DNA of 64,000 bases from an uncultured delta proteobacterium (GCA_963821645.1 CAWGEQ010000048.1:44563-108562), one strand, 5' to 3'; shown: positions 12,035 to 59,356, counted from the first letter of the stretch. Numbers and translations: made by a program. The notes: generated from the letters alone by a model not told the origin.

Positions 12035-13121
12035 ATGAATGAAGAAATCAGTCGGGTTAAGGATAAATTGAATAAATTAGGAGACTATCTTTGACCTGGC
12101 CCACAAAAAAGAACGGATGGCCTCCCTGGAAAAGGTTATCGCCCAAAACAGCTTCTGGGACAAGCCGGATCAGGCCAGGGTCGTCCTGAAAGAAAGGGGA
12201 AAACTCAGTCAGGTTGTTTCCGAATGGGAACAAACCCGAGCCCAATTAGAGGAAGTAGAGATCCTTCAGGACCTGGGTTCAGCCGAAGACGACCAGGAAA
12301 CCCTGACCGAAGTGGTAACCCGTTTAAAGGATCTTGAGAGGCAATTGGCCCGGATGGAATTTAACAAACTTCTTTCCGGGGAAGAAGATATCAATAATGC
12401 CATCATGGCCATTCATGCCGGTGCCGGCGGCACGGAAGCCCAGGATTGGGCCGAGATGCTGCTCCGCATGTATCTGCGTTGGAGTGAACGGCGGGGGTTT
12501 AAGACCGAGATCCTCGATCAGTTGCCCGGAGACGAAGCCGGTCTCAAAAGTGTGACCTTTACCATCGAAGGGAAATATGCCTACGGCTATCTGCGCTCGG
12601 AGAGCGGGATCCATCGTCTGGTCCGCATCTCTCCTTTTGATGCCGGGGGACGCCGCCACACCTCCTTTGCTTCGGTTTTTGTCTATCCGGAGGTGGAAGA
12701 CGACATCGAGATCGAGATCAATGAGTCCGATGTTCGGGTTGACACCTTCCGGGCCAGCGGGGCCGGTGGACAACATGTCAACAAGACCAGCTCGGCCATC
12801 CGTTTGACCCATATGCCCACGGGAATTGTGGTCCAATGCCAAAACGAGAAATCACAGCACCGCAACAAAGACATGGCTTTTAAGGTCTTGAAATCAAGAC
12901 TCTATGAGTTGGAACTGGAAAAGAAAGAGGAAAAAAAGAAGGAGATCCACGAAGGGCAGGCCGATATTGCCTGGGGAAGTCAGATCCGTTCTTATACCCT
13001 GGCCCCCTACCAGTTGGTGAAGGACCATAGGACTCAATTGGAGATCGGCAATGTGGCTGATGTCCTTGACGGGGGGATCGATCCTTTTATTGAGGCCTTT
13101 TTGTGGAAAAAAAATAAATGA
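12035..13121 (+). CDS. prfB: peptide chain release factor 2, made by programmed +1 frameshift (12035..12091 joined to 12093..13121)
   Basis: A short frame (MNEEISRVKDKLNKLGDYL) ends at CTT TGA C. The +1 frame continues DLAHKKERMASLEKV... through the SPF and GGQ (SGAGGQHVNKT) motifs. Confidence 0.95.
12079..12095 (+). promoter_or_regulatory. prfB autoregulatory +1 frameshift site
   Basis: SD-like AGGAG (12079-12083) upstream of the slippery CTT (12089-12091) and an in-frame TGA (12092-12094) followed by C. Confidence 0.9.
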
Positions 13122-18027: not shown

Positions 18028-18961
18028 ATGGCCATTCCAGATTATCAGAGCGTGATGTTGCCACTTCTCAGATTTTCCGCGGAAAAAAAAGACGAGACCT
18101 CCACAGGGGAGGCCGTTGAAGTCCTTCAAAAGAATTTGGCCTGACAGATGAAGATCTAAAAGAGCTACTTCCAAGCGGTATTTCAATCTACCTTTGTCAA
18201 TAGAGTTGGTTGGGCGTCTACTTACATGAAGAAAGCCGGTCTACTTGAAGCTACACGGAGAGGCTACTTTCGAATCACATCGCGCGGTCAAGAACTACTC
18301 AGGAAGCAGCCAAAAGCTATCAATATAAAACTTCTCAAACAGTATCCTGAGTTCCTTGAGTTCCAACAACTCAAAGGAACACGAAGTGGTGAGAAAGATA
18401 AGCGCCTCAGGAGGAACACCTGACATTTTAGCAGCTACTCCGTCTGAGGCATTGGAAAACGCCTATGAAAATCTACGTAATGAACTTGCTAACGAACTAC
18501 TCGCCAAAGCTTAAAAAATCTTCGCCATCCTTTTTCGAACGTGCTGTTGTCGAGTTGCTCGTGAAGATGGGTTATGGAGGCTCACGCTCCGACGCAGGAA
18601 AAGCCATTGGGAAAAGCGGAGATGGCGGCATTGATGGAATAATAAAAGAAGACAGACTTGGACTCGATGTCGTCTACATTCAAGCAAAACGATGGGACAA
18701 CTAATCCTGTTGGAAGGCCAGATGTTATGCAGTTTGCGGGAGCGCTACAAGTTGCAGAAAGCAAACAAAGGCATATTCATTACGACTTCCAGATTTACCG
18801 ACGATGCGAGAAGCTTTGTTTCACAAATTGGAAGCAAAATTGTCTTAATCGATGGGGAACAACTCACCAATTTAATGATTGAGAGTGATGTTGGCGTATC
18901 GGTTGTATCGATGTATCCGGTGAAGAAAATAGATGCTGATTATTTTGATGAAAGCATCTAA
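18028..18961 (+). pseudogene. mrr: Mrr-family restriction endonuclease, decayed (at least 5 frame disruptions)
   Basis: Mrr_N motifs MAIPDYQSVMLPLL, GLTDEDLKELLPSG and FVNRVGWASTYMKKAGLLE, plus Mrr_cat motifs FERAVVELLVKMGYGGS, GKSGDGGIDGIIKEDRLGLD, YIQAKRW, VGRPDVMQFAGAL, KGIFITTSRFT and VLIDGEQLTNLMI. These are spread over three reading frames. AAGGAGA Shine-Dalgarno sequence at 18014-18020. Confidence 0.8.
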
Positions 18962-19019
18962 CAAGCGGCTCCACCGGATCGCCGAAAAATCCGGCTTCCG
19001 GTGAGCTCTAACGGTGGCG
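18956..19019 (+). repeat. attC-like module A, copy 1
   Basis: ATCTAAC (fits RYYYAAC and contains the mrr stop codon), AAGCG, GCTCCAC, a 25-nt centre, GGTGAGC, TCTAAC, then GGTGGCG (a degenerate R', GGT instead of GTT). Confidence 0.45.
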
Positions 19020-19182
19020 CCGCCTGCGGCGTCGCCAATGCGGCGTTGACCCTATCTGGTTCATGTCCCGTTCGGCTTCGCCTACGGCTGCGCCAACCAG
19101 GCCATTGGACCTCGATGTCCCTCGCTCGCATGGGCCTTCGGCCCCCGCAAGCTTCGGGACACGGGTCAACGCCGCATTATGT
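19020..19182 (+). repeat. module B, copy 1: ~160-bp GC-rich long imperfect palindrome
   Basis: AATGCGGCGTTGACCC (19038-19053) pairs with GGGTCAACGCCGCATT (19163-19178). The apical 62 nt (19092-19153) are identical to 20465-20526. The module ends in ATTATGT. Confidence 0.55.
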
Positions 19183-19194
19183 AAGGAAAGAGAC

Positions 19195-19725
19195 ATGGCC
19201 ATATCCGATCGTATACTGGAGTGTATCAACAAATACAATGCCAATGATCTCGATAACGCTCTTATTCAAGTCTGTATTGCCATGGATGGAACGGCAAAGA
19301 AAGAGTATCCGAAAATAAAAAAAGTCGGTGAGAGGTTCAGGACGTTCATCAAGTCCAATCAAGACATAATCACCTTCTTTACGTTCAACACGAATATCTT
19401 CATCAACTGCCAGTTCGGAGAGTACACAATCGAGCAGTTTATATACAAAGTCCTTCGCTGCGGGTTGCTGCATGAAGGAGACATCCCCGAGATGTTCGAG
19501 TTTGCGGAAACGGGTGGTCCCATCGAAATCGGCGATAGAAAATGGCGTCTCCCGAAGACCTTCGTGTTTGGCGCAATGCTTGCCGTGATTGGCGCTCATT
19601 CCAATTCGGGGGAGAATTTGCCGGAAGACCTGACCGTCACCATTATGGGGCAGCAGTTTACCGTAAACCAGTTGTGGGGTCGTGCAGACATTATCAGAAC
19701 GACATTAGAGCCAAGGGCTGCATAA
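19195..19725 (+). CDS. hypothetical protein (177 aa), cassette-borne
   Basis: ATG 19195 follows AAGGAAAG. The 44 upstream codons of track ORF 19063..19725 lie inside repeat module B and were rejected. No motif was recognised. Confidence 0.6.
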   Translation: MAISDRILECINKYNANDLDNALIQVCIAMDGTAKKEYPKIKKVGERFRTFIKSNQDIITFFTFNTNIFINCQFGEYTIEQFIYKVLRCGLLHEGDIPEMFEFAETGGPIEIGDRKWRLPKTFVFGAMLAVIGAHSNSGENLPEDLTVTIMGQQFTVNQLWGRADIIRTTLEPRAA

Positions 19726-19782
19726 CCGCATGAACCGGATCATGTCCCTGGCGGGCCACTCCTGGATATGCATGCGTTGTAC
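19720..19782 (+). repeat. attC-like site (63 bp) after the 177-aa ORF
   Basis: GCATAAC (contains the stop TAA), then CGCATG..AACCGGA // TCCTGGAT..CATGCG, then GTTGTAC. The sequence is unrelated to module A but has the same architecture. Confidence 0.4.
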
Positions 19783-19828
19783 ATAAAAATCAATTGACTT
19801 ATAACCACATTGTATTTACACTGTATTT

Positions 19829-20137
19829 ATGTCTGAGATTCGCTTTGAATGGGATGAAAAGAAGCATTCTCTAAATATGAGAAAGCATGGAGTTTCTTTC
19901 AACGAAGGACAGACGGTGTTTGCTGATGAAAACGGTTTGTTACTTGACGATCCAGACCATTCTTAGGAGGAAAACCGCTTTATCCTTCTCGGACTAAGTT
20001 CCAGCCTACGCCTCATAGTCGTTTCCCATACCTATCGAAAGAATGATGCTGTTATAAGAATCATCTCGGCCCGTAAGGCGACTAACTCGGAACAAAAACA
20101 ATATGGAGAAGATGGTAACCATGAGAAAAGAATATGA
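19829..20137 (+). pseudogene. brnT: BrnT-family (DUF497) toxin with an in-frame TAG at 19964-19966
   Basis: The translation MSEIRFEWDEKKHSLNMRKHGVSFNEGQTVFADENGLLLDDPDHS*EENRFILLGLSSSLRLIVVSHTYRKNDAVIRIISARKAT parallels the intact paralog at 20613..20885. Confidence 0.75.
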
Positions 20138-20339
20138 TTTTTCCAAAGCCAAGAAAAATCCTTATGCGAACATGCTGAAGAAACATGTCTCCATAAGGTT
20201 AGATGAAGAAACCATCAAGTATTTCAAGGAGCTTGCAATGGGGGCCGGGATCCCCTACCAAACCCTGATAAACCTTTATTTACGGGATTGTGCGTCATCG
20301 GGTCGGAAGCTTTCTATTCAATGGAAAGAAGCTTCCTAA
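20103..20339 (+). CDS. brnA: BrnA-family antitoxin (RHH/CopG-like)
   Basis: KEYDFSKAKKNPYA...VSIRLDEETIKYFKELAMGAGIPYQTLINLYLRDCA. It overlaps the 3' end of the brnT pseudogene. An alternative start is ATG 20121. Confidence 0.8.
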   Translation: MEKMVTMRKEYDFSKAKKNPYANMLKKHVSIRLDEETIKYFKELAMGAGIPYQTLINLYLRDCASSGRKLSIQWKEAS

Positions 20340-20346
20340 AATATTT

Positions 20347-20411
20347 GCCCAACAAGACGTTCCACCGGATCGCCCGAAAACCGGGCTTCCCGGTGAACTC
20401 TTTCGTTGGCG
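20347..20411 (+). repeat. attC-like module A, copy 2 (best-preserved)
   Basis: R'' GCCCAAC (20347-20353), AAGAC, L'' GTTCCAC, atcgcccgaaaaccgggcttc-containing centre, L' GGTGAAC, TCTTTC, R' GTTGGCG (20405-20411). L'' carries one extra C relative to L'. Confidence 0.5.
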
Positions 20412-20556
20412 CCGCCTGCGGCGTTGCCCCTGTCGGGTCCATGTCCCGGCTGGCTCGCCCGGCTGCCAACCAGGCCATTGGACCTCGATGTCCCTCGCTC
20501 GCATGGGCCTTCGGCCCCCGCAAGCTGCGGGCCACGGGTCAACGCTGGATGCGGAG
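20412..20556 (+). repeat. module B, copy 2
   Basis: It shares the start ccgcctgcggcgt and the identical 62-nt core (20465-20526) with copy 1. The flanking stem arms have diverged. Confidence 0.55.
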
Positions 20557-20576
20557 ATCAGGTGATTACAAAACTC

Positions 20577-20605
20577 TTAGCATGATTCCAAGAACATGAT
20601 ATAAT
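20577..20605 (+). promoter_or_regulatory. candidate promoter of the second brnTA pair (near-leaderless)
   Basis: TTAGCA (20577-20582), a 17-nt spacer, then a perfect TATAAT (20600-20605). The brnT ATG at 20613 lies only 7 nt downstream. Confidence 0.4.
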
Positions 20606-20612
20606 CTGAAAT

Positions 20613-20885
20613 ATGAAAATCGAATGGGACCGGAAGAAGGCAAAAATCAACATTAGGAAGCATGAAGTCTCTTTTGAGGAAGCGGCCACCGCATTGAGTG
20701 ACCCTATGGCCGCAACCGGTCCCGATCCCGATCATTCAATTTCTGAAGAACGTTATATTACCTTTGGTGTATCAGAAAAAGGTCGGCTGCTGGTGGTATC
20801 TCACACTGAAGAAGGCGAAAACATTAGAATTATAAACGCTCGCAAAGCGAGCAAAGGAGAACGGGAACTTTATGAAGAAGGATAA
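20613..20885 (+). CDS. brnT: BrnT-family (DUF497) ribonuclease toxin
   Basis: MKIEWDRKKAKINIRKHEVSFEEA...DPDHSISEERYITFGVSEKGRLLVVSHTEEGENIRIINARKA. Confidence 0.85.
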   Translation: MKIEWDRKKAKINIRKHEVSFEEAATALSDPMAATGPDPDHSISEERYITFGVSEKGRLLVVSHTEEGENIRIINARKASKGERELYEEG

Positions 20886-21135
20886 AAAACCTGAAAAAGA
20901 CGAACTACGGCCGGAGTATAGGCGTTCAGATTTTCCCGGGGGCCTTGTACGGGGGAAATACACAAAACGTATAAAGGAATCATCAAATATCATCGTCCTT
21001 AAACCGGAAGTAGCCCGTGTATTTCCAAACGGAGATGCTGTTAACAAGGCTCTTCTTTCTCTGATCGACCTGGCCCGAAAAACAACACACCCAAGACGTT
21101 CCACCGGATCGCCCGAAAACCGGGCTTCCCGGTGA
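20872..21135 (+). CDS. putative cognate antitoxin; 3' end reads into the attC-like repeat
   Basis: It overlaps the brnT stop by 14 nt. It has the DELRPEY...VRGKYTKRIKESSNIIVLKPEVARVFPNGDAVNKAL pattern often seen next to DUF497 toxins. The last ~15 codons (HPRRSTGSPENRASR) are encoded by repeat module A. Confidence 0.6.
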   Translation: MKKDKKPEKDELRPEYRRSDFPGGLVRGKYTKRIKESSNIIVLKPEVARVFPNGDAVNKALLSLIDLARKTTHPRRSTGSPENRASR

Positions 21136-21183
21136 ACTCTTTCGTTGGCGCCGCCTGCGGCGTCGCCGATGCGGCAGTTAGAA
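21088..21183 (+). repeat. attC-like module A copy 3 plus a truncated module B, ending in GTTAGAA
   Basis: It is identical to copy 2 from gacgttccaccgg through gttggcgccgcctgcggcgt. The 5' R'' region carries a 3-nt deletion. Module B is cut to ~35 nt. Confidence 0.5.
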
Positions 21184-49148: not shown

Positions 49149-49173
49149 TCATTTGAAAGAAAGGAAGAATCAA

Positions 49174-49740
49174 ATGGACTTTAAGGAATTATTGGAAAAA
49201 CGGCGTTCTGTCAGGGACTTCGAAGACAAAGCGGTTTCGCCGGATCTGATTAAAAAAATCATCACTGAAAGCCTCAAGGCCCCCAACGCCAGCAATCTGC
49301 AGCCCTGGAAATTCATCGTGGTCAACAATCGAAAGATGATGAAAAGGATTTCCGATGCCAGTAAGAAAACGATCATCGCCGGCATCGAAAAAGACCCCAA
49401 TTCGCCTATGAAAGGATACCTGGAGATTCTGAAAAACGAAGGCTTCAATGTCTTTTACAATGCCCCCTGCTTAGTGGCCGTTGTCGGCCGCCTCAAAGGG
49501 GCCACCATTGCCATAGATTGTGCCCTCGTCGCCGCCTATTTTATGCTCTCGGCCGCCGACAAGGGCTTGGGCACCTGCTTTGTCGCCCAGGGAGCGGAGG
49601 CCAGGGACCCCGAGTTGCTTGAGGAAATCGGACTCCCCGAGGGGTACCGGATATGGGCCCCCATCATCGTCGGCTACCCGAAGAATATCCCTCCCATGCC
49701 GGATCGCAAGGAAGCCGAGATTCTAAAAATCATCTCCTAA
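49174..49740 (+). CDS. nitroreductase family protein
   Basis: RRSVRDF, PNASNLQPWKF. ATG 49174 with an AAGGAAG Shine-Dalgarno sequence is preferred over TTG 49153. Confidence 0.8.
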   Translation: MDFKELLEKRRSVRDFEDKAVSPDLIKKIITESLKAPNASNLQPWKFIVVNNRKMMKRISDASKKTIIAGIEKDPNSPMKGYLEILKNEGFNVFYNAPCLVAVVGRLKGATIAIDCALVAAYFMLSAADKGLGTCFVAQGAEARDPELLEEIGLPEGYRIWAPIIVGYPKNIPPMPDRKEAEILKIIS

Positions 49741-49765
49741 AAGTGCCCGGCGCACCGGAAAGGAG

Positions 49766-50140
49766 ATGGTAATGACACCGAGGCTCTTCCTGGCCATAGC
49801 AATAGTACTATTCGGGACACTATGTCAGTGTTTCGGAGAGACAGCCAGACCTTTTGGTCAGACGGTCATGGCCGCCGCCAACCCAACGGAAACGGTAGAG
49901 ATCTATATAACGGACTGGTGCCCGTATTGTGCGCAGGCTGTTAAGTTTTTTCAAGCTAATCAGATTCGGTATGTAGCCTATGATATAGAAAAAGACAGGG
50001 AAGCAGCGGAACGATATAAAAAGCTTTCAGGACGCCGGGGTGTTCCTTTCGCAATCATCAAAGGGAAAAAGATCCACGGCTTTTCCGAGCAGACGTATTC
50101 GAAAGCTCTTGACCTCAAGAGTCGACCGGGGCGGCCTTAG
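49766..50140 (+). CDS. exported glutaredoxin-like protein (CPYC active site)
   Basis: N-terminal signal peptide and a thioredoxin-fold motif YITDWCPYCAQAVKFF ... GVPFAII. Confidence 0.7.
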   Translation: MVMTPRLFLAIAIVLFGTLCQCFGETARPFGQTVMAAANPTETVEIYITDWCPYCAQAVKFFQANQIRYVAYDIEKDREAAERYKKLSGRRGVPFAIIKGKKIHGFSEQTYSKALDLKSRPGRP

Positions 50141-50183
50141 GTTATAGGTATTCAAGTGACATCAAGACTGGGTATTCTGTGAA

Positions 50184-50402
50184 ATGAGAGAGATTGAAAT
50201 TTCAGAAGAGCCCATCGAGCTCTATAAAATTCTGAAGTTCGAAAATTGGGTCGATAGCGGCGGCGAGGCGAAATTTGTGATTTCTGAAGGCCAGGTCAGA
50301 GTCAATGGCAAGGTTGAAACCAGAAAGCGAAAAAAGATCTTGTCAGGTGATGTGGTCGCATTTGGGAAAAATAAAATTCGTGTCATAGTCAAAGGAAAAT
50401 GA
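50184..50402 (+). CDS. S4-domain RNA-binding protein (YbcJ-like)
   Basis: 72 aa with VRVNGKVETRKRKKILSGDVV. Confidence 0.65.
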   Translation: MREIEISEEPIELYKILKFENWVDSGGEAKFVISEGQVRVNGKVETRKRKKILSGDVVAFGKNKIRVIVKGK

Positions 50403-52005: not shown

Positions 52006-52266
52006 GGTTTGGTTCTCCTTTCAGGTGTTATGTTAGACGCGCAATCCTTTTATGATTTTTCCATTCCGGTTCTTGGCCTTTTCTCTTTCCCGGCATCTCT
52101 CTACAGGGGATACCCTACTATAAAATAGGCTGGAATGTTAGGTCAAGAATATTAGATCAACCAGGGAGTCATTTAAGATGGCAACCATTTTTCTTTCGCC
52201 GATTGTTTGATATTCCCCGATTCTATGGTTATAATAAAACAATCAAGATCGTTGGGAGGAGTGGGG

Positions 52267-53097
52267 ATGTCTAAGCGAGAAAAATCGGAAAAGATCGAAA
52301 ACGGAGAGTATAGAATAACCGAAGAACCTTTTTACCTTCCCCAGGGAAACGAAATAGCCATTTTTGAGGCGGCCCAGGCCAACAAGCTCCCGGTTTTGCT
52401 CAACGGTCCCACGGGAAGCGGAAAGACCAGACTGGTAGAACATATGGCCTGGCGGTTGAAGCTTCCCCTATACACCGTGGCCTGCCATGAGGACCTGAGC
52501 GCCAATGATCTGACCGGACGTTATATCATCAAGGGAGACGAGGTGAAATGGATAGACGGACCTCTCCTGATGGCCGTTCGTGAGGGGGGCATCGCCTACT
52601 TAGATGAAGTGGTCGAAGCCCGGAAGGATGTGACGGTGGTGATCCATCCCCTGACCGACCACCGGCGCTGTCTGCCGGTGGAAAAACGGAGTAAAATCTT
52701 TCACGCCCCGGAAGGATTCATGCTGGTCATTAGCTATAATCCAAACTACCAAAGTGTGCTTAAAGAACTCAAACCGAGCACCAGGCAGCGTTTCGTGTCG
52801 ATCAACCTGGGCTGGCCGAAGGAAGAGTTGGAAATACGCATCGTCAGCCGTGAGGCCGGTGTGGATGAAGAGACGGCGGATAAGCTGGTCAGGGCGGCCA
52901 ACCGGATACGTAATCTGGTCAATCAGGGACTCGAAGAGGGCGTATCCACCCGCGAGCTGGTTTATGCCGGGACGCTTCTTCGTAACGGATTGCCGATGAA
53001 AGATTCCCTTCAGGCCACCATGATCGAGCCCTTGACCTATGATATAGACCTGAAGAAAAGCATCGAAGAGGTACTGAAAAATTATTTTAGTTTTTGA
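52267..53097 (+). CDS. CbbQ/NirQ/NorQ/GvpN-family AAA+ ATPase (MoxR class)
   Basis: Walker A LNGPTGSGKT, Walker B GGIAYLDEV, and the conserved HPLTDHRR and VISYNP stretches. The start is set at MSKREKS behind GGGAGGAG; the track ORF starts at 52207. Confidence 0.85.
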   Translation: MSKREKSEKIENGEYRITEEPFYLPQGNEIAIFEAAQANKLPVLLNGPTGSGKTRLVEHMAWRLKLPLYTVACHEDLSANDLTGRYIIKGDEVKWIDGPLLMAVREGGIAYLDEVVEARKDVTVVIHPLTDHRRCLPVEKRSKIFHAPEGFMLVISYNPNYQSVLKELKPSTRQRFVSINLGWPKEELEIRIVSREAGVDEETADKLVRAANRIRNLVNQGLEEGVSTRELVYAGTLLRNGLPMKDSLQATMIEPLTYDIDLKKSIEEVLKNYFSF

Positions 53098-53213
53098 CAA
53101 TAGGATTCGAGGGGTCCGTGGTTCGAGGGTGGGGGGGCTGAATAAAATATGAAAAAGATTTCTCCAGCATTGAACCTTGATGAAATCATAAAAATCTCGG
53201 AGCACACATTTTT

Positions 53214-53292
53214 ATCATTCCCGTGAAAACGGGAATCCAGTATTTTTAAACAGTTGAGAATCATCTGGATTCCCGCCTTCGCGGGAATGACG
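53214..53292. repeat. paired REP-like elements in inverted orientation
   Basis: ATCATTCCCGTGAAAACGGGAATCCAG (53214-53240), a 24-nt spacer, then CTGGATTCCCGCCTTCGCGGGAATGACG (53265-53292). The layout matches 60948-61024. Confidence 0.7.
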
Positions 53293-53352
53293 AGTTTTTA
53301 CGAGACCATCGATGATGGATGTCGAAGGAAGACAAAAACAATTCACCTGATG

Positions 53353-53421
53353 ATTCGAAATTCGAAATTCGGTATTCAATATTCGTATTTATTGAATTCT
53401 CTGAACTTGAACCTTGAACGG
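53353..53421. repeat. heptamer tandem tract (ATTCGAA)n followed by (CTTGAAC)-type units
   Basis: attcgaa attcgaa attcggt attcaat attcgta, then ...gaattctctgaacttgaaccttgaacgg, directly upstream of the giant VWA gene. Confidence 0.55.
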
Positions 53422-53431
53422 TATTTCTTCC

Positions 53432-56400
53432 ATGTCCCATACTTCTAAAAATAAAACAGGTCATATCGATAAGGACTATGAAGAGGAATTGATCGCCCGG
53501 TTCGGCGAGGCCCTTTCTCCTCTGATTGATCGCTTCGGCTATGGAGGGATCGATCAAATAGGCATACTGATGGCCAGGCTCAGGCAAGATGACCCGCAGG
53601 CTGCTTTGTATCTTCTTAAAATAAGTCCTTCTCTTATCGACAGGCTTCTTCCCCAGGGTGAAGAGTTGATTTTGAATGTTTATGAATTGGGAAATCAGAT
53701 GGTCCCCTTTGGGTCCGTTTTAACCGTGAGACTTCTGGAGATGAGTCCTGAGATCCTTGAAAAGGGTGATTACCAAACCTTGGTTAAAACAGCCTCCCTG
53801 GCCCGTGAAGTGGCCCGTGAAAATAGTGCCACCGCAGTGACCCTGATTCAGAAAAGTCCGGACCTTCTCGAGTCCATAGGCTTCGAAGGACTCGAAAGGA
53901 TCGGCTTGTTTAGCGCGGCCATAGCCCGTTCAAGCCGGACCTATTCGCTGAAGGCCCTTGAACAGAGCACCTCGGCTGTCGAGGTCCTCCTCAAGTCGGG
54001 AGGTAAAGGGTTGGTCCTCACCGTCTATGGCCTGGGGATGCGCCTGGCCGATGAGGATTGGAGCAATGCCCTGGAAGTGGTCAAAAGAAGTCCGGACGTG
54101 GCCGAAGCGCTGGTTTCACAGGGAAACGGCCCACTCCTTACGGGTCTCTACGAGCAGGCGTCCAGGGCCGCTTCTTTCGGGGCCGGTCTGACCTTGACGT
54201 TCCTTGATACGGCCCCTTCCTTGATCGAACAGATCGGTCCGGCCGGGTTGGAACCAATTTGGAGGTGCGCCTTGGCCATGGCCGCCGAAAATCCGGAAAA
54301 TGCCCAGTCCCTCCTTAAAAAAAGCCCTGACATCGTACAGGGCCTGCTTTCCCGATTTTCTTCCTTAAAGGTTGGGGAAGTCTATGAACTGGGAATGGAT
54401 CTGGCCCGGATCAGTTCCCAATTGGCCCTCGGGTTTTTGGAGAAGAGTGTCGATCTGGCGGAGCGACTCGATGACGAAAATTTAATGCACCTTTTAAACA
54501 GGGCCAAAGAAATGGCTCAAGCGAGTCTGCCCGCGGCTGGGGCCTTTCTCCAGAACGCTTCGGCCTTGATCGACAGGGTCGGCGTCGGGGGACTGGACAA
54601 GATTGCCGATTGGAGCATACCCATGGCCCGTCAAAGCTTTGAAGCGGCTACCCGGTTCCTCCAAAAAAGCCCTGAACTGATCAACCGTCTGGGTCTTGAC
54701 GGAGTCAAGACGATCGGCGATTTTTCGGCCCTCTTGGCTCAAGAAAGCGAGACATCGGCCATCCGCCTTATTGAAAAATGCCCCTCTATCATCGACGGCC
54801 TCTTGAAGATCGACGGTCTTTCCCTGATAGCCGAAGTGTGCCGATTAGGCGGCCGGATCGCCCGAACCAACGCCCGACTGGCCGTGAGTCTTCTCGAAGG
54901 AAGCCCTGAAATCATAGGGATGGCCGGGTTCGCCGGACTTGAAAAGGTGGAGGAACTGGCCCATCAGGTGGGCCTCGAGAATTGGACAGCCGCCGTCAGC
55001 CTGGTCGAAGCAAGTCCCCGGATCATTGAACGGGTAGGATTCGAAGGGTTGGAAAGGATCGCCGCCGTGGCCCGGAAGATGGCCCGGGTGAATAGTTATA
55101 ACGCGGTCAATCTTCTGGAAAAATGTCCCGATCAGATCGATCGTCTCCTCCACTACGGAGACCAGACCCTGGCCCTCCATGTCTATGATCTGGCCGGAGA
55201 AGCGGTTTCCTTAGGCTGGAGAATGGCCTCGATCCTGCTGGAGCGAAGTCCGGAATTCCTCTCCAGTATAGGCGCTGATGGGCTGGAAAAGTTGATCGAC
55301 CTGGTCAACAAGAAGGCGGAAAAAAACCTGCCGGTGGCCTTGGGTATTCTGGATAAAGGCCTGGCCATTATGGATCGATTGGGATTTGAGGGGCTGGAAA
55401 TCCTGTCGGATCTTTCCTCGGTCGTCTTTAAGGCCGATCAGGAGGGGGCTTTATCGCTCCTGGAGAATGGCCCTTTGTTAATCGACCGTCTGGAGAATAC
55501 CATGGAGGGAAACGTGGCCTTGGCCGTTTATGACCTGGCGGCCAAGGTGGCCCGAACCAGCCCGGCGGTGGCCATGAGGCTCCTTGGAAAAAGTCCGGAA
55601 TTTCTCGACTGGGTGGGATTCGAAGGATTCGGGAGGATTGCGGCCTTTGTGGAAAATGCAGCCAAAGTGGATGAAGAAAAGGCCCTTTCTTTTTTAAAAA
55701 GCGATTCTCCGGCCTTTGCCGACTTTATGGAAAATATTCCCAAAGGGCTTGAGTTAAAGACCGTCAAGCCGGTGCTTTCCATCTATCTGAAGGCATTGCT
55801 GGGCAGGAGGGTGGAGATTGCCGAGGCTGACATGGTCTACACGGACGGCCAAAAAATATACCTGCCCCGTCGGATTAAGGAATTTCAGGACCGGGAAGAT
55901 AACTTCGCCCTTTATAAGGTATCGGCCACCCATCAGGAGGCTCATCTCGAATACGGAAGCTTTGAATTCGACCTGGACAGGATCGGGGACAGCGTCGAAC
56001 GACTCAGGTCTCTTTATGGAGAAAAGGCCGGTGAGGACGAAGGCGATATAGACCGGTTTGTCCTGCTTTTTCCGGAACCGGACCTGGCCCGGGATCTTTT
56101 TAACATTATGGAAGACTTTCGTATTGAAGACTTGCTAAAACGGGAATATCCTGCCCTCGGAAAAGATATTACCCGGATGAATCTCCACAAACTATCCCAG
56201 AGACGTCCACCTAAAAATATGACCAATCCCAAACAGCGGGCGGTGGAAATGATCGGTCAGTCTTTGATGGGTGGAAAGACCTTTGATGAACCCGGTGATC
56301 CGGCCTTTCCCATCCTCCAGGAGGCCTTGGAAAGGGCAGGGTTCCTGGAGCGGCCCGGGGCCGATGTGCATGACGCGGCACGAATAGCCGCAGAACTGAC

Positions 56401-57817
56401 CATTAGGCTCGATCGGGAATTTAAGGAACCCTACCGCCCGGCCAAGCCCATGGCCAAACCCCTGGATCAGGACATGGTTTCCCGGAATATCGGCAGCTTC
56501 GGCAAAACTTCCCAGAAGATCCAGGAGCGGATCAGTCGAAGGGAATCGGCCGGGCCCATACGGCCCCAGGACCAGCCTGAGGCGGAAAGCGGTTCGGAGG
56601 CGGAAACACAGCCCAGCCAAAGTCGGCCCGGCCAGGATAATATTCAACAGCGGCCCCGGCCTGTTGGTAAAGATCAAAGGACTTTTCAGGGACCCGTCGG
56701 AGGAGGAAAACCGGAATCCGGGGGTTCGGATACAGAAGCGGAAGAAACCGGCCGAGTGGGGGAAGTTATGAAATTTGATTCCCCTGAAAAGATAGAGCGT
56801 CTGCTAAAGGCGGCTTACCGGGAGCAGGGGATAACCCCCAAGGAGATCGAGCGGCGCCTTGAATCTCTTTACCAAAATGAAATTTATCTCTTCCTCCATA
56901 ATCTGGAAGCCTCGCTCGATAAAAAGACAGAGCTTCAAAGCGAAAGGGGAACCTCTCTGTACCCCGAATGGGGCGAAGATATCCAGGAATACCGGGGCAA
57001 CTGGGCCAGAGTACGCGAACAGACCCTGGCGGGGAAAACCCCGGATTTTTACCGGGAAACCCTGGACAGGTATGCGGGTCTTCTTAAAAAAATAAGAAGA
57101 GAATTTCAGATACTGAAACCCGAAGGGTTCGTCAAGCTCAAGCGGCAATACGACGGTGATGATATTGACCTGGATGCCGTGGTGGAATATTGGGTGGACC
57201 GAAAAGCAGGGCTTTCTCCTGGCGAAAACAACTACACCCTAACCCGGAAAAAAAGACGGGACATCGCCGTGGCCTTTCTGATCGATATGAGCCGGAGTAC
57301 CAAAGGGGCTACCATCGAAAGGGAGAAGGAATCACTCATCATCATGTCCGAGGCCCTTCATGAAGTGGGGGATAGCTTTGCCGTTTTCGGCTTTTCAGGG
57401 GACAACCGGGACAATGTGGATTTTTACCGGATCAAGGGCTTTGATGATCCCTATGACGATCCGGTGAAAAAAAGGATTTCCGCCATCACGGATCGCTTTG
57501 AAAACCGGGACGGTACGGCCATCAGACACACCGTAACCAAACTACGGAGGAGACCGGAACGAACCAAGCTGATCATCCTCCTGAGCGACGGCAAGCCGGT
57601 GGACAAGGAGTATACCGGCCTCTATGCCATCGAAGACACGCGTATGGCCCTGAAAGAGGCCCAGCATTTCGGTATCAAAACCTTCTGCATAACCGTTGAC
57701 CGGACCGCTGCTGAATACCTGCCCAGAATGTACAGCCACAGTAGTTGGACGGTTATCGATGATGTTATCAGACTTCCCGAGAAAATCACCAGGATTTACC
57801 GGGGTCTGACGGCTTAA
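53432..57817 (+). CDS. giant CbbO/NorD-like von Willebrand factor A protein with an N-terminal array of 19 tandem 37/41-aa helical repeats
   Basis: C-terminal VWA/MIDAS domain (VAFLIDMSRST...FGFSG...ILLSDGKPVD...ITVD). NorD/CbbO-like middle region (TDGQKIYLP...NFALYKVSATHQEAHLEYGSF). An acidic/Pro-rich linker. The repeats are in track aa 35-763. Start ATG 53432 is preferred over TTG 53414, but there is no clear Shine-Dalgarno sequence. Confidence 0.8.
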   Translation: MSHTSKNKTGHIDKDYEEELIARFGEALSPLIDRFGYGGIDQIGILMARLRQDDPQAALYLLKISPSLIDRLLPQGEELILNVYELGNQMVPFGSVLTVRLLEMSPEILEKGDYQTLVKTASLAREVARENSATAVTLIQKSPDLLESIGFEGLERIGLFSAAIARSSRTYSLKALEQSTSAVEVLLKSGGKGLVLTVYGLGMRLADEDWSNALEVVKRSPDVAEALVSQGNGPLLTGLYEQASRAASFGAGLTLTFLDTAPSLIEQIGPAGLEPIWRCALAMAAENPENAQSLLKKSPDIVQGLLSRFSSLKVGEVYELGMDLARISSQLALGFLEKSVDLAERLDDENLMHLLNRAKEMAQASLPAAGAFLQNASALIDRVGVGGLDKIADWSIPMARQSFEAATRFLQKSPELINRLGLDGVKTIGDFSALLAQESETSAIRLIEKCPSIIDGLLKIDGLSLIAEVCRLGGRIARTNARLAVSLLEGSPEIIGMAGFAGLEKVEELAHQVGLENWTAAVSLVEASPRIIERVGFEGLERIAAVARKMARVNSYNAVNLLEKCPDQIDRLLHYGDQTLALHVYDLAGEAVSLGWRMASILLERSPEFLSSIGADGLEKLIDLVNKKAEKNLPVALGILDKGLAIMDRLGFEGLEILSDLSSVVFKADQEGALSLLENGPLLIDRLENTMEGNVALAVYDLAAKVARTSPAVAMRLLGKSPEFLDWVGFEGFGRIAAFVENAAKVDEEKALSFLKSDSPAFADFMENIPKGLELKTVKPVLSIYLKALLGRRVEIAEADMVYTDGQKIYLPRRIKEFQDREDNFALYKVSATHQEAHLEYGSFEFDLDRIGDSVERLRSLYGEKAGEDEGDIDRFVLLFPEPDLARDLFNIMEDFRIEDLLKREYPALGKDITRMNLHKLSQRRPPKNMTNPKQRAVEMIGQSLMGGKTFDEPGDPAFPILQEALERAGFLERPGADVHDAARIAAELTIRLDREFKEPYRPAKPMAKPLDQDMVSRNIGSFGKTSQKIQERISRRESAGPIRPQDQPEAESGSEAETQPSQSRPGQDNIQQRPRPVGKDQRTFQGPVGGGKPESGGSDTEAEETGRVGEVMKFDSPEKIERLLKAAYREQGITPKEIERRLESLYQNEIYLFLHNLEASLDKKTELQSERGTSLYPEWGEDIQEYRGNWARVREQTLAGKTPDFYRETLDRYAGLLKKIRREFQILKPEGFVKLKRQYDGDDIDLDAVVEYWVDRKAGLSPGENNYTLTRKKRRDIAVAFLIDMSRSTKGATIEREKESLIIMSEALHEVGDSFAVFGFSGDNRDNVDFYRIKGFDDPYDDPVKKRISAITDRFENRDGTAIRHTVTKLRRRPERTKLIILLSDGKPVDKEYTGLYAIEDTRMALKEAQHFGIKTFCITVDRTAAEYLPRMYSHSSWTVIDDVIRLPEKITRIYRGLTA

Positions 57818-57923
57818 GGGCTCGGTTCGTTTTAAGGAAGAAAAATGATCACCAATGAAACACAATGGATTCCGGCTTTCGCCGAAAGAACTCTAACTGA
57901 TTCAATAAAAAAAGGAGAAATTT

Positions 57924-58493
57924 ATGGCTCAAGATTCCAAAGAAAAAAAACGGGGAACGACAATTGAATTGTTGAATAAGGCCCGTGGCATGGAGTTGCT
58001 GGCGATTTCACAGTATATGAACCAGCATTATAACCTGGATAACCTGGATTATGGGGATATGGCCGCCAAGGTTAAATTGATCGCCATCGATGAAATGCGC
58101 CACGCGGAGATGTTTGCCGACCGCATAAAAGAGTTAGCCGGAGAGCCGACTTCAGACCCGGCTGGAAAGGTACAAAAAGGTCAAAAAGTCGAGGGGATGT
58201 TTTCCTTTGATGCCAATCTCGAGGACAATACGATCGACACCTACAACCAGTTTCTGACGGTGTGCAGGGAAAACGGCGACAGCATCAGCATGAAGCTTTT
58301 TGAAGCGATCATCGATGAAGAGCAGGTCCATTTCAATTACTTTGACAATGTAAATGACCACATCGAGAAGCTCAACGGGACCTATCTGGCTCAGATAGCC
58401 GGGACCCCATCGACCACCGGCCTGCAGACTCAGGGCTTTGTCGCCAGGCAGGGGATTAAACCACCGCCGGGGGGCGCCACTCCCCTTCGATAA
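57924..58493 (+). CDS. bacterioferritin-like / ferritin-like di-iron protein with a ~30-aa Gly/Pro-rich C-terminal extension
   Basis: Ferroxidase-type ligand pattern (ELLAISQY...IDEMRHAEMF...EEQVHFNY). 189 aa, longer than I recall for typical Bfr proteins. AAGGAGA Shine-Dalgarno sequence. Confidence 0.75.
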   Translation: MAQDSKEKKRGTTIELLNKARGMELLAISQYMNQHYNLDNLDYGDMAAKVKLIAIDEMRHAEMFADRIKELAGEPTSDPAGKVQKGQKVEGMFSFDANLEDNTIDTYNQFLTVCRENGDSISMKLFEAIIDEEQVHFNYFDNVNDHIEKLNGTYLAQIAGTPSTTGLQTQGFVARQGIKPPPGGATPLR

Positions 58494-58533
58494 AAAAAGA
58501 ACGGATCGTCTGACCTGATGGTCCTGTAAAAGC

Positions 58534-58577
58534 CACCAAGGCCGCCACCCGGCTTTTACCGGGTGGCGGCCTTGGTG
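58534..58577. terminator. perfect 19-bp hairpin between convergent genes (bidirectional terminator candidate)
   Basis: CACCAAGGCCGCCACCCGG (58534-58552) pairs with CCGGGTGGCGGCCTTGGTG (58559-58577), with a 6-nt loop. Confidence 0.65.
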
Positions 58578-58645
58578 AGTCTATCAACCGGAGAGTAAAG
58601 TGATTTGAATAGAATTTTTTGGAAATGAGGGGACGATCGGCGCCG

Positions 58646-59356
58646 TCAAATAAATTTACAGACCCCGACGGGGCAGCGTTTTTCTTTGATGTGGATCTCA
58701 AACTCTTCCCTGAAATTGGTCAAGATAGCCAGAATAATATGGGAGGTCTTACCGGCGAAGGCACAATAGGCCGCCTGCTGCATCAGGGTCATCAGCGATT
58801 CCATCTCCTGAAGGGCATCTTCCGGCGCTCGGCCGTGACTGATGGCTTCAATGAGATCGGAAAGCCTTTGAATACCCAGGCGGCAGGGGACGCATTTGCC
58901 GCAGGATTCACCGTAATGGAACTTGATCAGATAGTCGGCGACCTGAACCATACAGGTGGAGGGGTCCATGACCATAATACAACTATGGTCTTTTTCCCAA
59001 ATCAAGTCGCCCCGGGTGGACTGAAGGGGATTCAGACGCAATAAAGGAAAGAGGATCTTCCCCTTTTGAATCGTCTCTTCCAGAATAAAGGGGACATGGG
59101 CTTCCTGGACCTGTTCATAAAAAAGGCCCATGTGAGGCAAACTCAAGAAAGGTCCCCGGCGGCACGTTCCGCTGCAACCGCATTTGGCCGGCTCAATGAC
59201 TACGGGGATATTCAACCTTTGGGCTTCGGCAATAAGGCCCTTATAAAGGGCTTCTGCCCCACAGCTCGGCTTGGGTCCTTGACCCCGGCAAACCGTTATC
59301 CTTGGGGCCTGGGTAGCCTGGGGCTCCGCGATCAGATTGGTGGATACTGCTGGCAT
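58646..59356 (-). CDS. Fe-S protein fusing a thioredoxin-like [2Fe-2S] (NuoE-type) domain to the NuoF C-terminal [4Fe-4S] domain; no FMN/NADH domain
   Basis: N-terminal VCRG...SCGAE...CGCSGTCRRGP. C-terminal ESCGKCVPCRLG...YCAFAG. The intervening region aligns with the NuoF region just before the cluster (DPSTCMVQVADYL). Confidence 0.7.
   Translation of the reverse strand: MPAVSTNLIAEPQATQAPRITVCRGQGPKPSCGAEALYKGLIAEAQRLNIPVVIEPAKCGCSGTCRRGPFLSLPHMGLFYEQVQEAHVPFILEETIQKGKILFPLLRLNPLQSTRGDLIWEKDHSCIMVMDPSTCMVQVADYLIKFHYGESCGKCVPCRLGIQRLSDLIEAISHGRAPEDALQEMESLMTLMQQAAYCAFAGKTSHIILAILTNFREEFEIHIKEKRCPVGVCKFI

Follow-up and report, generated by a model that had tools for sequence, protein, structure and literature searches.

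A NorQ/CbbQ-class AAA+ ATPase paired with a giant NorD/CbbO-like VWA adaptor that carries a family-specific helical-repeat region

Analysis of a 64-kb stretch of DNA from an uncultured delta proteobacterium (hereafter the window) points, with a probability of about 0.6, to a two-gene operon, not a trio, that encodes a self-contained remodeller of the NorQD/CbbQO type whose client-binding arm is expanded and whose client is encoded elsewhere. This central functional claim is drawn by homology. The novelty lies in the adaptor, in which about 20 family-specific 37-aa helical repeats stand ahead of a NorD-like core. The features of the locus are collected in Table 1.

Table 1. Features of the ATPase–adaptor locus and its 3' flank (positions in the window)
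Feature	Position	Strand	Details
Promoter-like site TTTGATATT-N17-TATAAT	52206..52235	+	11/12 consensus positions matched
GGAGG ribosome-binding site	between promoter-like site and ATG 52267	+	
NorQ/CbbQ-class MoxR AAA+ ATPase	52267..53097	+	276 aa; Pfam AAA_5 + CbbQ_C
ATPase–VWA spacer	53098..53431	+	334 bp
Giant NorD/CbbO-like VWA adaptor	53432..57817	+	1,461 aa; 44 homologues
N-terminal alpha-solenoid	53591..55717	+	aa 54-762; ~18-20 tandem ~37-aa repeats, ~710 aa
NorD-like N-terminal domain	55718..56539	+	aa 763-1036; model + motif alignment
Disordered linker	56540..56764	+	aa 1037-1111, 75 aa; rich in Gly, Glu, Pro, Gln
NorD-type VWA module	56765..57814	+	aa 1112-1461; phmmer + Foldseek
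Bacterioferritin	57924..58493	+	189 aa; Pfam Ferritin; 1nf4 match
20-bp perfect hairpin	58533..58578	.	between convergent bacterioferritin and NuoF-like genes

The preliminary description of this DNA had assigned the first gene to the CbbQ/NorQ class of AAA+ ATPases, and Pfam (AAA_5, 7.9e-33; CbbQ_C, 1.7e-27) and the PDB agree. The product matches NorQ of Paracoccus (PdNorQ, 9qh4) with an E-value of 2.5e-98 and 60% identity, and CbbQ (5c3c) with an E-value of 2.8e-91 and 50% identity. Walker A (GPTGSGKT, 52405-52428) and Walker B (YLDEV, 52597-52611) are both intact, and a serine of this P-loop replaces the redox-switch cysteine of NorQ. The helix-2 insert reads GRYIIKGDEV (52516-52545) against GRxLLxxxxT in NorQ, and the pair after sensor 1 is VL instead of IL (PMC13036017). 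A TTG at 52207 was rejected as the start codon, since it is part of the -35 hexamer of the promoter-like TTGATA-17-TATAAT; the real start is the ATG listed in Table 1. This promoter-like pattern has no second match within the 64-kb window. The arrangement ATTTGATATT...TATA(A/T)T also lies 5' of the AAA+ gene in seven related loci and is kept across subclades.

The giant VWA protein announced downstream of the spacer was confirmed, with a MIDAS-type VWA domain. We consider its gene real because 42 of its 44 homologues cover at least 69% of the query. The protein is made of four parts, namely helical repeats, a weakly NorD-like N-terminal domain, a disordered linker and a NorD-type VWA module. 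Its C-terminal ~680 aa had been proposed to resemble a full-length NorD/CbbO; our results showed that the resemblance is strong for the finger and VWA part but weak for the N-terminal domain. In the VWA module, a YPEW hairpin (aa 1177), a pore-finger region (about aa 1229-1275), a Pfam VWA domain (aa 1280-1435) and the C-terminal ...YRGLTA were located, and the MIDAS is intact (D1285-x-S-x-S, T1362, D1386). With phmmer, aa 1172-1459 match NorD 9qhd_G (E 1.9e-45) and the module matches 9qh6_G (E 1.7e-38). Foldseek on the VWA model gave the NorD VWA as the best match (E 5e-16, TM 0.73 on the target), followed by the MIDAS domains of Midasin/Rea1, and a weak CobT_C match was recorded in Pfam.

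The NorD-like N-terminal domain, modelled at a pLDDT of 80-95, displays the motifs TDGQKIYLP (aa 804), NFALYK (824), HQEAH (834), EDFRIE (894) and REYPAL (904), which are conserved across Syntrophales, Nitrospirota, Chloroflexota and Myxococcota (alignment A3). Its profile aligns with the N-terminal domain of PdNorD collinearly but weakly (E 0.036), a weak match links aa 772-830 to NorD residues 58-117, and two family members weakly match Pfam CobT. The linker that follows has a pLDDT of about 30 (model residues 277-351) and corresponds to the NorD linker that is essential for iron insertion (PMC13036017).

Ahead of this core, 18 repeat units were found by iterated HMM (per-unit E-values down to 1e-18; consensus n..aAv.LLekSPelIdrlGfeGLe.ia.la..mA), while the coding DNA holds no tandem repeat at the DNA level. 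The AlphaFold2 model of this solenoid is all-alpha with a mean pLDDT of 87.9. It matches no Pfam family and no PDB fold at E<=0.001, designed helical repeats being closest. The 37-aa repeat is restricted to this giant-VWA adaptor family: it matches only 59 proteins among 1.84 billion representatives, and in all the longer ones it accompanies the NorD-like part. A shorter, divergent version seems to stand ahead of the core in relatives of ~1,000 aa from Nitrospirota and Chloroflexota. The N-terminal domain of such adaptors varies in length and has been proposed to give target specificity (PMC9976466). As N-terminal regions are thought to set client specificity, we infer that the solenoid may serve as a long arm that binds or scaffolds a large client, whose gene lies elsewhere in the genome. 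Self-assembly or localisation would be other possible roles for it.

Homology to NorQD and CbbQO predicts a ring of six ATPase subunits, with the VWA domain of a single adaptor molecule docked in its concave face. ATP hydrolysis would then rotate the VWA domain and stretch the disordered linker, while the MIDAS site and the N-terminal region of the adaptor hold the client, which would be pried open. The outcome might be insertion of a cofactor or metal, or release of an inhibitor.

We compared 41 de-duplicated related loci, with 10 kb on either side. The pairing of a NorQ/CbbQ-type AAA+ protein with a NorD/CbbO-type VWA protein holds in the window and in these loci: wherever a bacterial repeat-bearing locus includes upstream DNA, the AAA+ gene directly precedes the VWA gene in the same orientation, often with a gap of 0-12 bp. 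It is not universal in archaea, because the VWA part of several ANME-1 loci lacks an ATPase within 10 kb. No gene beyond these two is conserved at the loci, and the most frequent neighbour occurs in 11 of the 41 loci. Hosts are Syntrophales, Desulfobacterales and ANME archaea, and Nitrospirota and Chloroflexota often have shorter relatives. The ATPases of Syntrophales and ANME share 74-77% identity, so the pair has moved between domains of life. By contrast, the AlaRS flanking it at one locus (L042) shares only 25% identity with its bacterial counterparts. Judged by these identities, only the AAA+/VWA pair passed between the two groups.

The repeat-filled spacer was also found as described. 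It contains a 24-nt direct repeat and two inverted copies of a REP-like hairpin (ATTCCC-N8-GGGAAT, 26 nt each, 53215-53240 and 53265-53290). The first copy is followed by a T-run and has a terminator-like score on the + strand, so it could uncouple the two genes transcriptionally. The REP-like element fills the equivalent spacer in loci L002 and L024. Since the spacer of the Smithellaceae relatives is only 11-12 bp long, that of the window is a lineage-specific insertion.

The most frequent neighbour is a nitroreductase-family gene, found in both Syntrophales and ANME-1 among the repeat-family loci, although its counts are inflated by phylogenetic non-independence; 44 loci from Nitrospirota or Chloroflexota all lack it. 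In L020 and L024 such a gene lies immediately 3' of the VWA gene and shares its strand, a different PF00881 gene is divergently upstream in L003, and in the window itself a nitroreductase gene is paired with a glutaredoxin gene (49153-50140). Together with a Fur/PerR-family gene 3' of the VWA gene in L019, this would suit an oxidative- or redox-stress repair chaperone, encoded in a stress regulon with nitroreductase-family flavoproteins, glutaredoxin and bacterioferritin, that reactivates an oxygen-damaged metalloenzyme of strict anaerobes or has a nitroreductase-family protein as its client. We nevertheless regard this as unlikely. The nitroreductase gene is absent from 30 of the 41 loci and is upstream, downstream or convergent where present, the bacterial and archaeal proteins are only 22-26% identical, and no shared operator was found. 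Moreover, nitroreductase genes are numerous in anaerobes.

A weak iron/oxidative-stress flavour thus remains around the pair (nitroreductase near it in 11 of the 41 loci, glutaredoxin in the window, the Fur-family gene of L019), but it points to no particular client.

The ferritin-like di-iron gene following the pair proved to be a bona fide bacterioferritin. It matches that of Desulfovibrio desulfuricans (1nf4) with an E-value of 3.9e-65 over 170 aligned residues, and its six di-iron ligands (E24/E57/H60/E100/E133/H136) and haem methionine (Met58) are all canonically spaced in the sequence; it differs by ~15 extra C-terminal residues, and nothing suggests a specialised role. The strong hairpin said to close the cluster is there as well: the 161-nt stretch has an MFE of -69.8 kcal/mol (z-score -6.5), and its perfect stem is probably a bidirectional terminator.

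This gene had been put forward as a third member or client of the system, and an iron-delivery module, in which the pair takes iron from, loads or remodels the bacterioferritin and the three genes form one unit, would fit several observations. NorQD is itself an iron insertase (PMC13036017), the stretch from the VWA gene to the bacterioferritin gene holds no predicted + strand terminator, and a Fur-family gene lies 3' of the VWA gene in L019. Bacterioferritin is found within 2 kb 3' of the VWA gene in the window and five related loci despite local rearrangements. However, it is present in only 5 of the 41 de-duplicated loci, all of the window's own subclade; the gene is missing in L020 and L024 of that same subclade, and in Smithellaceae, Desulfobacterales and archaeal loci, so that synteny of the trio is largely absent elsewhere. 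In L002, an oppositely oriented IS110 transposase gene separates it from the VWA gene, and co-transcription is thus not required there. Finally, the bacterioferritin is of the standard Desulfovibrio type with its own ribosome-binding site (AGGAG), and the AAA+ promoter motif is not repeated 5' of its gene. We consider an iron-delivery unit quite improbable and the bacterioferritin probably a neighbour, not part of the AAA+/VWA machine.

The neighbouring complex-I-like module with its Fe-S protein had been named as another possible client. The pair might, by analogy with RavA-ViaA and Nuo/Frd of E. coli, assemble or remodel this Nuo/Fpo-type membrane complex. An operon of this kind, which includes a gene for a NuoF-C-terminal Fe-S protein, is found downstream in convergent orientation in the window and three related loci, and a NuoF-like gene was found 1.7-3.9 kb 3' of the VWA gene in seven of the Nitrospirales loci fetched. 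To our knowledge, all host lineages have 11-subunit complex-I-type enzymes. RavA-ViaA is reported to interact with Nuo (PMC3893208). Against such a role, which we hold to be very unlikely, the operon is convergent with a strong terminator hairpin in between, pair and operon are neighbours only in two clades whose synteny is inherited (among the 41 de-duplicated loci it occurs in three, all of the window's subclade), and the genes are missing from the other 35 or more loci.

As previously stated, no known client is encoded nearby. Pfam searches on ~40 ORFs found no Rubisco, NOR, CODH, chelatase or gas-vesicle gene in the 64-kb window, and the surroundings of the pair in the 41 related loci likewise lack Rubisco, NOR, CODH and gas-vesicle genes. 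The pair could still be an ordinary NorQD or CbbQO serving a NOR or Rubisco encoded at a distant site in the genome, as the identities of the ATPase to NorQ (60%) and CbbQ (50%) and the JGI automatic annotation of family members as NorQ and NorD would suggest. This is most improbable. The genes norB/C and cbbL/M/S are absent from the window and are not among the recurrent neighbours within 10 kb in the 41 loci, and Syntrophales, Desulfobacterales and ANME archaea are not known to us as denitrifiers or Calvin-cycle autotrophs. In addition, the adaptor resembles neither NorD nor CbbO over its N-terminal two-thirds, the part expected to determine specificity (PMC4660213). The client is probably neither Rubisco nor NOR.

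A vWA-MoxR type conflict system, an idea also raised earlier, or an anti-phage system is hardly credible: MoxR-vWA pairs do occur in conflict systems, and toxin-antitoxin and IS elements flank some loci (e.g., L002), but PADLOC gave only P-loop-level matches (IetA and mad8) for the ATPase and none for the VWA protein, no effector domain or VMAP-like partner was seen, the pair is embedded in housekeeping neighbourhoods, and the ATPase belongs to the NorQ/CbbQ subfamily.

Among the known systems closest to the self-contained remodeller that we favor is NorQ-NorD (PDB 9qh4-9qhg), which inserts FeB into cytochrome c nitric-oxide reductase. The two ATPases share 60% identity, with conserved helix-2 insert and post-sensor-1 contact residues; the VWA part, including pore finger, MIDAS and C-terminal contact residues (L-T-A versus L-V-A in NorD), aligns end to end; and both systems share the gene order, ATPase then VWA, and the layout of N-terminal domain, disordered linker and VWA domain. 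The adaptor is 1,461 aa long versus ~640 aa for NorD because of its ~710 aa of novel helical repeats, no nor genes are near the pair, and its hosts are strict anaerobes and archaea.

With CbbQ-CbbO, the Rubisco activase (PDB 5c3c, 6l1q), the pair shares 50% identity in the ATPase, a C-terminal VWA with a perfect MIDAS, a long and poorly conserved N-terminal region and, as expected by homology, a Q6:O1 stoichiometry. CbbO is shorter (~770 aa), and no Rubisco or carboxysome genes adjoin the window pair, whose hosts are, as far as we know, not Calvin-cycle autotrophs. RavA-ViaA, which acts on respiratory complexes, and CobS-CobT/BchI-BchD share the general logic of an AAA+ ring and a VWA adaptor, and the giant-VWA family has weak CobT_C and CobT matches. 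The window ATPase belongs to another AAA+ subfamily (AAA_5 plus CbbQ_C) than RavA, CobS and BchI, and no chelatase substrate subunit or LdcI-type partner is present.

The eukaryotic ribosome-assembly protein Midasin/Rea1 differs in that the window system has a homohexameric ring, is split into two polypeptides, shows no sign of a ribosomal client and has a solenoid arm without detectable homology to the Rea1 linker. However, the Midasin AAA modules are matched by the ATPase (E ~1e-51), and the two proteins together repeat its layout of an AAA ring, a long helical arm, an acidic disordered linker and a MIDAS domain docking back on the ring.

The ORF map, the sequence and the Pfam and PDB matches agree with the gene layout of the preliminary description, in which a NorQ/CbbQ-class ATPase gene is followed by a giant NorD/CbbO-like VWA gene and a ferritin-like gene. 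Pfam scans of about 40 further ORFs in the window revealed ordinary housekeeping and transport genes and no Rubisco, NOR, CODH, chelatase or gas-vesicle genes. Together with the layout, this confirms the earlier observation of an orphan pair with no known client in the window. Orphan AAA+/VWA pairs are common, and no dedicated activases or metal insertases are better understood than the pairs of the NorQ/CbbQ type. To our knowledge, only two clients are established for this subfamily, Rubisco and the cytochrome c nitric-oxide reductase (cNOR), and the carriers of the present pair are not expected to have either. Building on the observed domain identities, motif conservation, pairing and context, our best reading, with a probability of roughly 60%, is a NorQD/CbbQO-like remodeller with an extended client-binding arm and a client encoded elsewhere.

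Coordinates of the features of the ATPase/VWA locus and of related loci carrying a split adaptor
Feature	Position	Strand	Length	Evidence or description
AAA+ ATPase gene	52267-53097	+	276 aa	ORF map, sequence
ATPase-VWA spacer	53098-53431		334 bp	26-nt inverted pair and short direct repeat
REP-like hairpin, first copy	53215-53240
REP-like hairpin, second copy	53265-53290
Giant VWA protein gene	53432-57817	+	1,461 aa	ORF map, sequence
Folded N-terminal (weakly NorD-like) domain	aa 763-1036			model pLDDT 80-95
H(E/Q)xxH motif	55931-55945 (aa 834-838)
Downstream ED pair	56111-56128 (aa 894-899)
Disordered linker	aa 1037-1111			Gly/Glu/Pro/Gln-rich; model pLDDT ~30
VWA domain	aa 1280-1435			PF00092, 5.1e-10
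Bacterioferritin gene	57924-58493			PF00210, 3.2e-25; D. desulfuricans Bfr 1nf4, E 3.9e-65
20-bp perfect hairpin	58533-58578			between bacterioferritin and convergent NuoF-like gene
Split-form locus L041	8927-12045
Split-form locus L043
Split-form locus L035	6840-10716
Split-form locus L029	1657-3944

The ATPase gene starts at ATG 52267, just preceded by a GGAGG ribosome-binding site. A longer ORF starting with TTG at 52207 was rejected as the ATPase gene, this TTG being part of the -35 hexamer of a promoter-like TTGATA-17-TATAAT (52207-52235). In Pfam, the product has a single AAA_5 domain (PF07728, 7.9e-33) followed by a CbbQ_C lid (PF08406, 1.7e-27), both above the gathering scores. Its top matches among solved structures are NorQ (9qh4, E 2.5e-98), CbbQ (5c3c, E 2.8e-91) and the AAA modules of Midasin (E ~1e-51), and it is 60% identical to Paracoccus NorQ and 50% to CsoCbbQ. 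Walker A (GPTGSGKT) and Walker B (YLDEV) are intact. [quoted passage not shown] Judged from these domains and motifs, the ATPase is a MoxR AAA+ protein of the CbbQ/NorQ/GvpN subfamily.

A promoter-like motif, ATTTGATATT-N17-TATA(A/T)T, is found 5' of the ATPase gene in eight loci of differing subclades, namely the window (52206-52235) and the related loci L006, L036, L002, L010, L022, L003 and L008. Its conservation supports a transcription unit beginning at the ATPase gene. In the window, an 8-bp inverted repeat (GATTGTTT...AAACAATC) brackets the site and might be an operator; a search for an operator common to the ATPase promoter and the bacterioferritin or nitroreductase genes found none. 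Downstream of the ATPase gene, the spacer contains two copies of a REP-like hairpin, GTCATTCCCGTGAAAACGGGAATCCAG, of the form ATTCCC-N8-GGGAAT, which occurs nowhere else in the 64-kb window. The same element fills the equivalent spacer in the related loci L002 (~9885-9960) and L024 (~7475-7640), so that three separate lineages carry it, and its format recalls the Neisseria dRS3 repeat. The long spacer of the window is a lineage-specific insertion populated by these hairpins. As the first copy scores terminator-like, we speculate that it could reduce expression of the adaptor relative to the ATPase. Rfam and tRNA scans detected no RNA gene or riboswitch in the spacer or the window.

Elsewhere in the window, the 18961-21167 region holds three copies of a 76-200-nt repeat, the closest two or three of which are 95-99% identical. 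Among them are small ORFs resembling toxin-antitoxin genes (BrnT/BrnA-like) and a frameshifted Mrr-like restriction gene (18226-18961), an arrangement that is cassette-array or MITE-like. The prfB (RF-2) ORF at 12117-13121 begins at PCRF residue 2, about 27 aa shorter than a 361-aa database protein of its cluster, which fits the usual programmed +1 frameshift.

We then examined the giant protein. Residues 761-1461 were modelled with a mean pLDDT of 74. After the disordered linker, the model contains a beta-hairpin with YPEW, a helical segment of lower confidence where NorD has its finger, and a VWA fold. Residues 1172-1459 align with cryo-EM NorD (9qhd_G, E 1.9e-45; 9qh6_G, E 1.7e-38), and Foldseek of the VWA model returned NorD VWA chains with their finger first (E 5e-16, target-normalised TM 0.73), followed by the MIDAS domains of human MDN1 and Chaetomium Rea1. 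The MIDAS residues (D1285-M-S-R-S, T1362 and D1386) are intact. Alignment with residues 339-637 of Paracoccus NorD (PdNorD) is gap-poor across the finger (403-448), and the C-terminal end, ...YRGLTA, resembles the ...YRQLV(A) of PdNorD. [quoted passage not shown]

In PdNorD, the finger binds the NorQ helix-2 inserts that carry GRxLL/IxxxxT, the final two residues of the protein contact I159/L160 of the post-sensor-1 loop, and both contacts are required for NorQD complex formation and iron insertion (PMC13036017). As the finger, the C-terminus, GRYIIKGDEV and the VL pair are all preserved here, the NorQD-type docking interface is conserved in sequence.

The C-terminal ~680 aa had been described earlier as looking like a full-length NorD/CbbO. 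This holds for the finger and VWA part (E 1.9e-45), while the N-terminal domain resembles NorD weakly. A single-sequence search aligned its residues 772-830 with NorD 58-117, collinearly but insignificantly, and two collinear stretches of the PdNorD N-terminal domain were matched by a profile of 13 diverse adaptor-family members (E 0.036). Pfam CobT was matched weakly by two family members. From its sequence, we consider this domain weakly NorD-like. Its conserved motifs are TDGxxIYLP, NFxxYKV, atH(E/Q)xxHLEFG, EDxR(I/V) and REYPG. The third contains HExxH in Nitrospirales and one Methanosarcinales member and HQEAH in the window and Chloroflexota; it is lost in several others, and the wider family does not conserve its two His. 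A zincin-like peptidase was rejected on this lack of conservation and on the absence of any metallopeptidase Pfam match in the 13 members scanned at E<=5. Likewise, the profile matched only NorD and noise in the PDB (e.g., phospholipase C, E 1.5), with no peptidase family. The H(E/Q)xxH motif and the ED pair may form a degenerate zincin-like or metal-binding site.

In the N-terminal arm of the protein, residues 54-762 consist of about 18-20 tandem units of ~37 aa with the consensus n..aAv.LLekSPelIdrlGfeGLe.ia.la..mA. An HMM built on nine clear copies and then iterated on the giant protein recovers 18 units, with per-unit E-values as low as 1e-18. AlphaFold2, using an alignment of 24 family members, predicts residues 1-800 as an all-alpha array (mean pLDDT 87.9). 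HEAT, ARM, TPR, Sel1 and other known helical-repeat families were rejected: a PDB sequence search was negative, a Pfam scan of the arm matched no model at E<=0.01, and Foldseek against the PDB gave nothing at E<=0.001, the best hit being a de novo designed helical-repeat protein (E 0.0096). A phmmer scan of 1.84 billion representative proteins with residues 1-770 returned just 59 at E<=0.001; nearly all the longer matches also had the NorD-like core or its repeat-associated part, and the remainder were mostly short fragments. Taken together, the Foldseek, Pfam and phmmer results indicate that the 37-aa repeat is specific to the adaptor family. It is a new domain family and a candidate entry for domain databases. 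No tandem repetition was found at the DNA level in the repeat region, which argues against a recent tandem duplication and for an old array. The exact sequence from ATG 53432 is absent from the protein collection searched, and the database start of the protein probably differs from this ATG.

A word-indexed search identified 44 relatives of the giant protein, 42 of them with at least 69% query coverage; the named ones were all Thermodesulfobacteriota or Deltaproteobacteria MAGs. Scanning one genome per GTDB species with the C-terminal half gave at least 549 loci, of which the best 80 were fetched. Among these, MAGs of Smithellaceae, Syntrophaceae and Syntrophales carry the giant form (57-92% identity); cultured Desulfatitalea alkaliphila (M08but, locus L028) has a form of 1,357 aa, and one Methanosarcinales MAG has one of 1,040 aa. 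Desulfobacterales MAGs carry two-gene split forms, and ANME-1 (Methanophagales) split or partial forms. Relatives in Nitrospirota, Chloroflexota and Myxococcota (~1,000-1,100 aa, 30-34% identity) have no recognisable copies of the repeat, and profile-profile comparison detects a faint periodic similarity in their ~335-aa N-terminal extension (E 1e-4 to 3e-3). The long arm of the giant protein thus seems to have expanded from a shorter one already present in a widespread family. A conserved ~136-aa ORF with no Pfam match abuts or overlaps the VWA stop codon of the ~1,000-aa relatives in Nitrospirota (L045-L048, L055-L084), where it may represent a third component. The ATPase gene is non-adjacent in most fetched Nitrospirales loci.

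Split adaptors of Desulfobacterales and ANME-1 break at one shared point, ~104 residues into the NorD-like N-terminal domain, with a 4-nt gene overlap in L041 and L043 and a ~690-nt gap in L035. Many independent database proteins terminate at the same position, and the split appears to be a real gene fission. In several ANME-1 loci only the VWA half is present, and no ATPase gene lies within 10 kb of it. Where present, the ATPases of ANME-1 (L035/L029) and Methanosarcinales (L042) are 74-77% identical to those of Syntrophales, whereas AlaRS encoded on the archaeal contig L042 shares just 25% identity with bacterial AlaRS. The pair has therefore crossed between Bacteria and Archaea as a two-gene cassette, and the sequences indicate transfer between likely syntrophic partners.

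To map the neighbours, ORFs of 85 fetched loci and of the 40-64 kb stretch of the window were clustered by all-against-all BLAST. In every bacterial repeat-bearing locus whose DNA continues upstream, the ATPase gene directly precedes the VWA gene in the same orientation, the gene order that characterises NorD/CbbO-type adaptors. The two genes are 0-12 bp apart in Smithellaceae, and the gap is 88-371 bp in the subclade of the window. No third gene is conserved; past the ATPase, no neighbour occurs in more than 11 of the 41 de-duplicated loci of the repeat-bearing family. The commonest, a nitroreductase-family gene (11/41), comes from the window's subclade, where an S4_2-like gene also accompanies the pair, and from ANME-1. 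It would fit a role in redox-stress repair or a nitroreductase-family client, which we consider unlikely, though the best placed of the alternatives suggested by neighbours: the nitroreductases of the two groups are only 22-26% identical, and position and orientation vary. In the window, nitroreductase (49153-49740), glutaredoxin and a 72-aa S4_2 RNA-binding-like gene lie on the same strand at 49153-50402, upstream of a divergent amidase. In the related locus L019, a Fur-family regulator gene (12192-12608) follows the VWA gene by 85 bp on the same strand, and a long tandem array of CAGACCAAA(A/C)GGACCAAA-like units (~6630-6785) directly precedes the ATPase gene. An M16 peptidase gene is found downstream in two loci (L026 and L027).

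The ferritin-like gene encodes a bacterioferritin, whose ligands E24, E57, M58 (haem), H60, E100, E133 and H136 are at canonical spacing, identical to that of the di-iron ligands and haem Met of E. coli Bfr. The preliminary description had proposed that it forms a functional trio with the pair, and had suggested it or the neighbouring Fe-S/complex-I genes as client. Bacterioferritin is downstream of the VWA gene in just 5 loci, all of the window's subclade (VWA identity >=73%), and in one of them, L002, an opposite-strand IS110 transposase intervenes. This restricted synteny does not sustain the trio and makes bacterioferritin-linked iron delivery improbable. A complex-I-type client is slightly less probable again. 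Complex-I-like genes with a NuoF-C-terminal protein adjoin the pair only in the window, L005, L006 and L036, and 7 of the fetched Nitrospirales loci have a full-length NuoF-like gene downstream; the linkage is confined to these two clades, with inherited synteny, and both proposed clients are lineage-specific neighbours. The 'unusual Fe-S protein' noted previously (58646-59356, minus strand) has 236 aa: its N-terminus resembles a 2Fe-2S ferredoxin, and of NuoF it contains just the C-terminal 4Fe-4S domain. Its gene comes first in the complex-I-like operon, from which a full NuoF seems to be missing.

A conventional NorQD or CbbQO whose client is encoded far away would agree with the ATPase subfamily and the adaptor-defining features, which the pair shares with both systems, but we regard it as quite improbable. 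Unlike NorQD proper, the pair has no linkage to nor genes, which are absent from the 64-kb window and from the recurrent neighbours of the 41 loci, and its N-terminal domain is a marginal match (E 0.036). CbbQO genes follow cbbLS or cbbM, or belong to a carboxysome operon (PMC4660213), whereas no Rubisco or carboxysome gene was found in the window or related loci. Defining features of neither system proper are thus present. A MoxR-vWA conflict or defence system, raised earlier as an alternative, is very improbable: PADLOC models match the ATPase only at P-loop level (E 1e-5) and the VWA protein not at all, and there is no conserved third gene and no effector or VMAP component.

Returning to a NorQD/CbbQO-like remodeller with its client encoded elsewhere, the ATPase subunits would, by homology with NorQD and CbbQO, form a hexamer binding one adaptor, whose VWA finger would occupy the pore and whose C-terminus would contact the post-sensor-1 loop. 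Driven by ATP hydrolysis, the VWA domain would turn and the linker would extend, and a client held by the MIDAS site and the N-terminal region would then be pried open. The N-terminal region of adaptors, which varies in length, has been proposed to set client specificity (PMC9976466); we therefore infer that the ~20-repeat arm may be an extended client-binding or scaffolding surface. The client is probably a different, large protein or complex. Its identification would widen the substrate range of NorQ/CbbQ-type machines and could hint at how a key enzyme of syntrophic or methane-cycling anaerobes is matured or repaired. Since a cultured carrier, D. alkaliphila M08but, exists, both the client and the role of the arm can be tested.

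Our finding overturns nothing established. The NorQD mechanism was visualised only recently (2026), and we found no paper on the adaptor family beyond work on NorQD, CbbQO and RavA. Databases name its members "VWA domain-containing protein" or, automatically, "NorD/NorQ", and the automatic "nitric oxide reductase NorQ/NorD" names are probably misleading for these genes. Compared with NorQ, the P-loop Cys of the proposed redox switch is a Ser in the window ATPase. The two proteins together repeat the layout of Midasin/Rea1: a ring, a helical arm, an acidic disordered linker and a MIDAS domain docking back on the ring. A bolder and doubtful proposal is that the pair is a horizontally mobile, split-gene prokaryotic counterpart of Midasin, serving a large client complex particular to syntrophic and methane-/alkane-cycling anaerobes (e.g., complex-I/Fpo-type or another big metalloenzyme), with the degenerate H(E/Q)xxH...ED as a site holding metal during insertion. 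If true, it would add a new client class to NorQ/CbbQ-type activases. Against the known systems, the missing client, the host range, the transfer between domains of life and the repeat arm are new, and the motor and its docking module are familiar.
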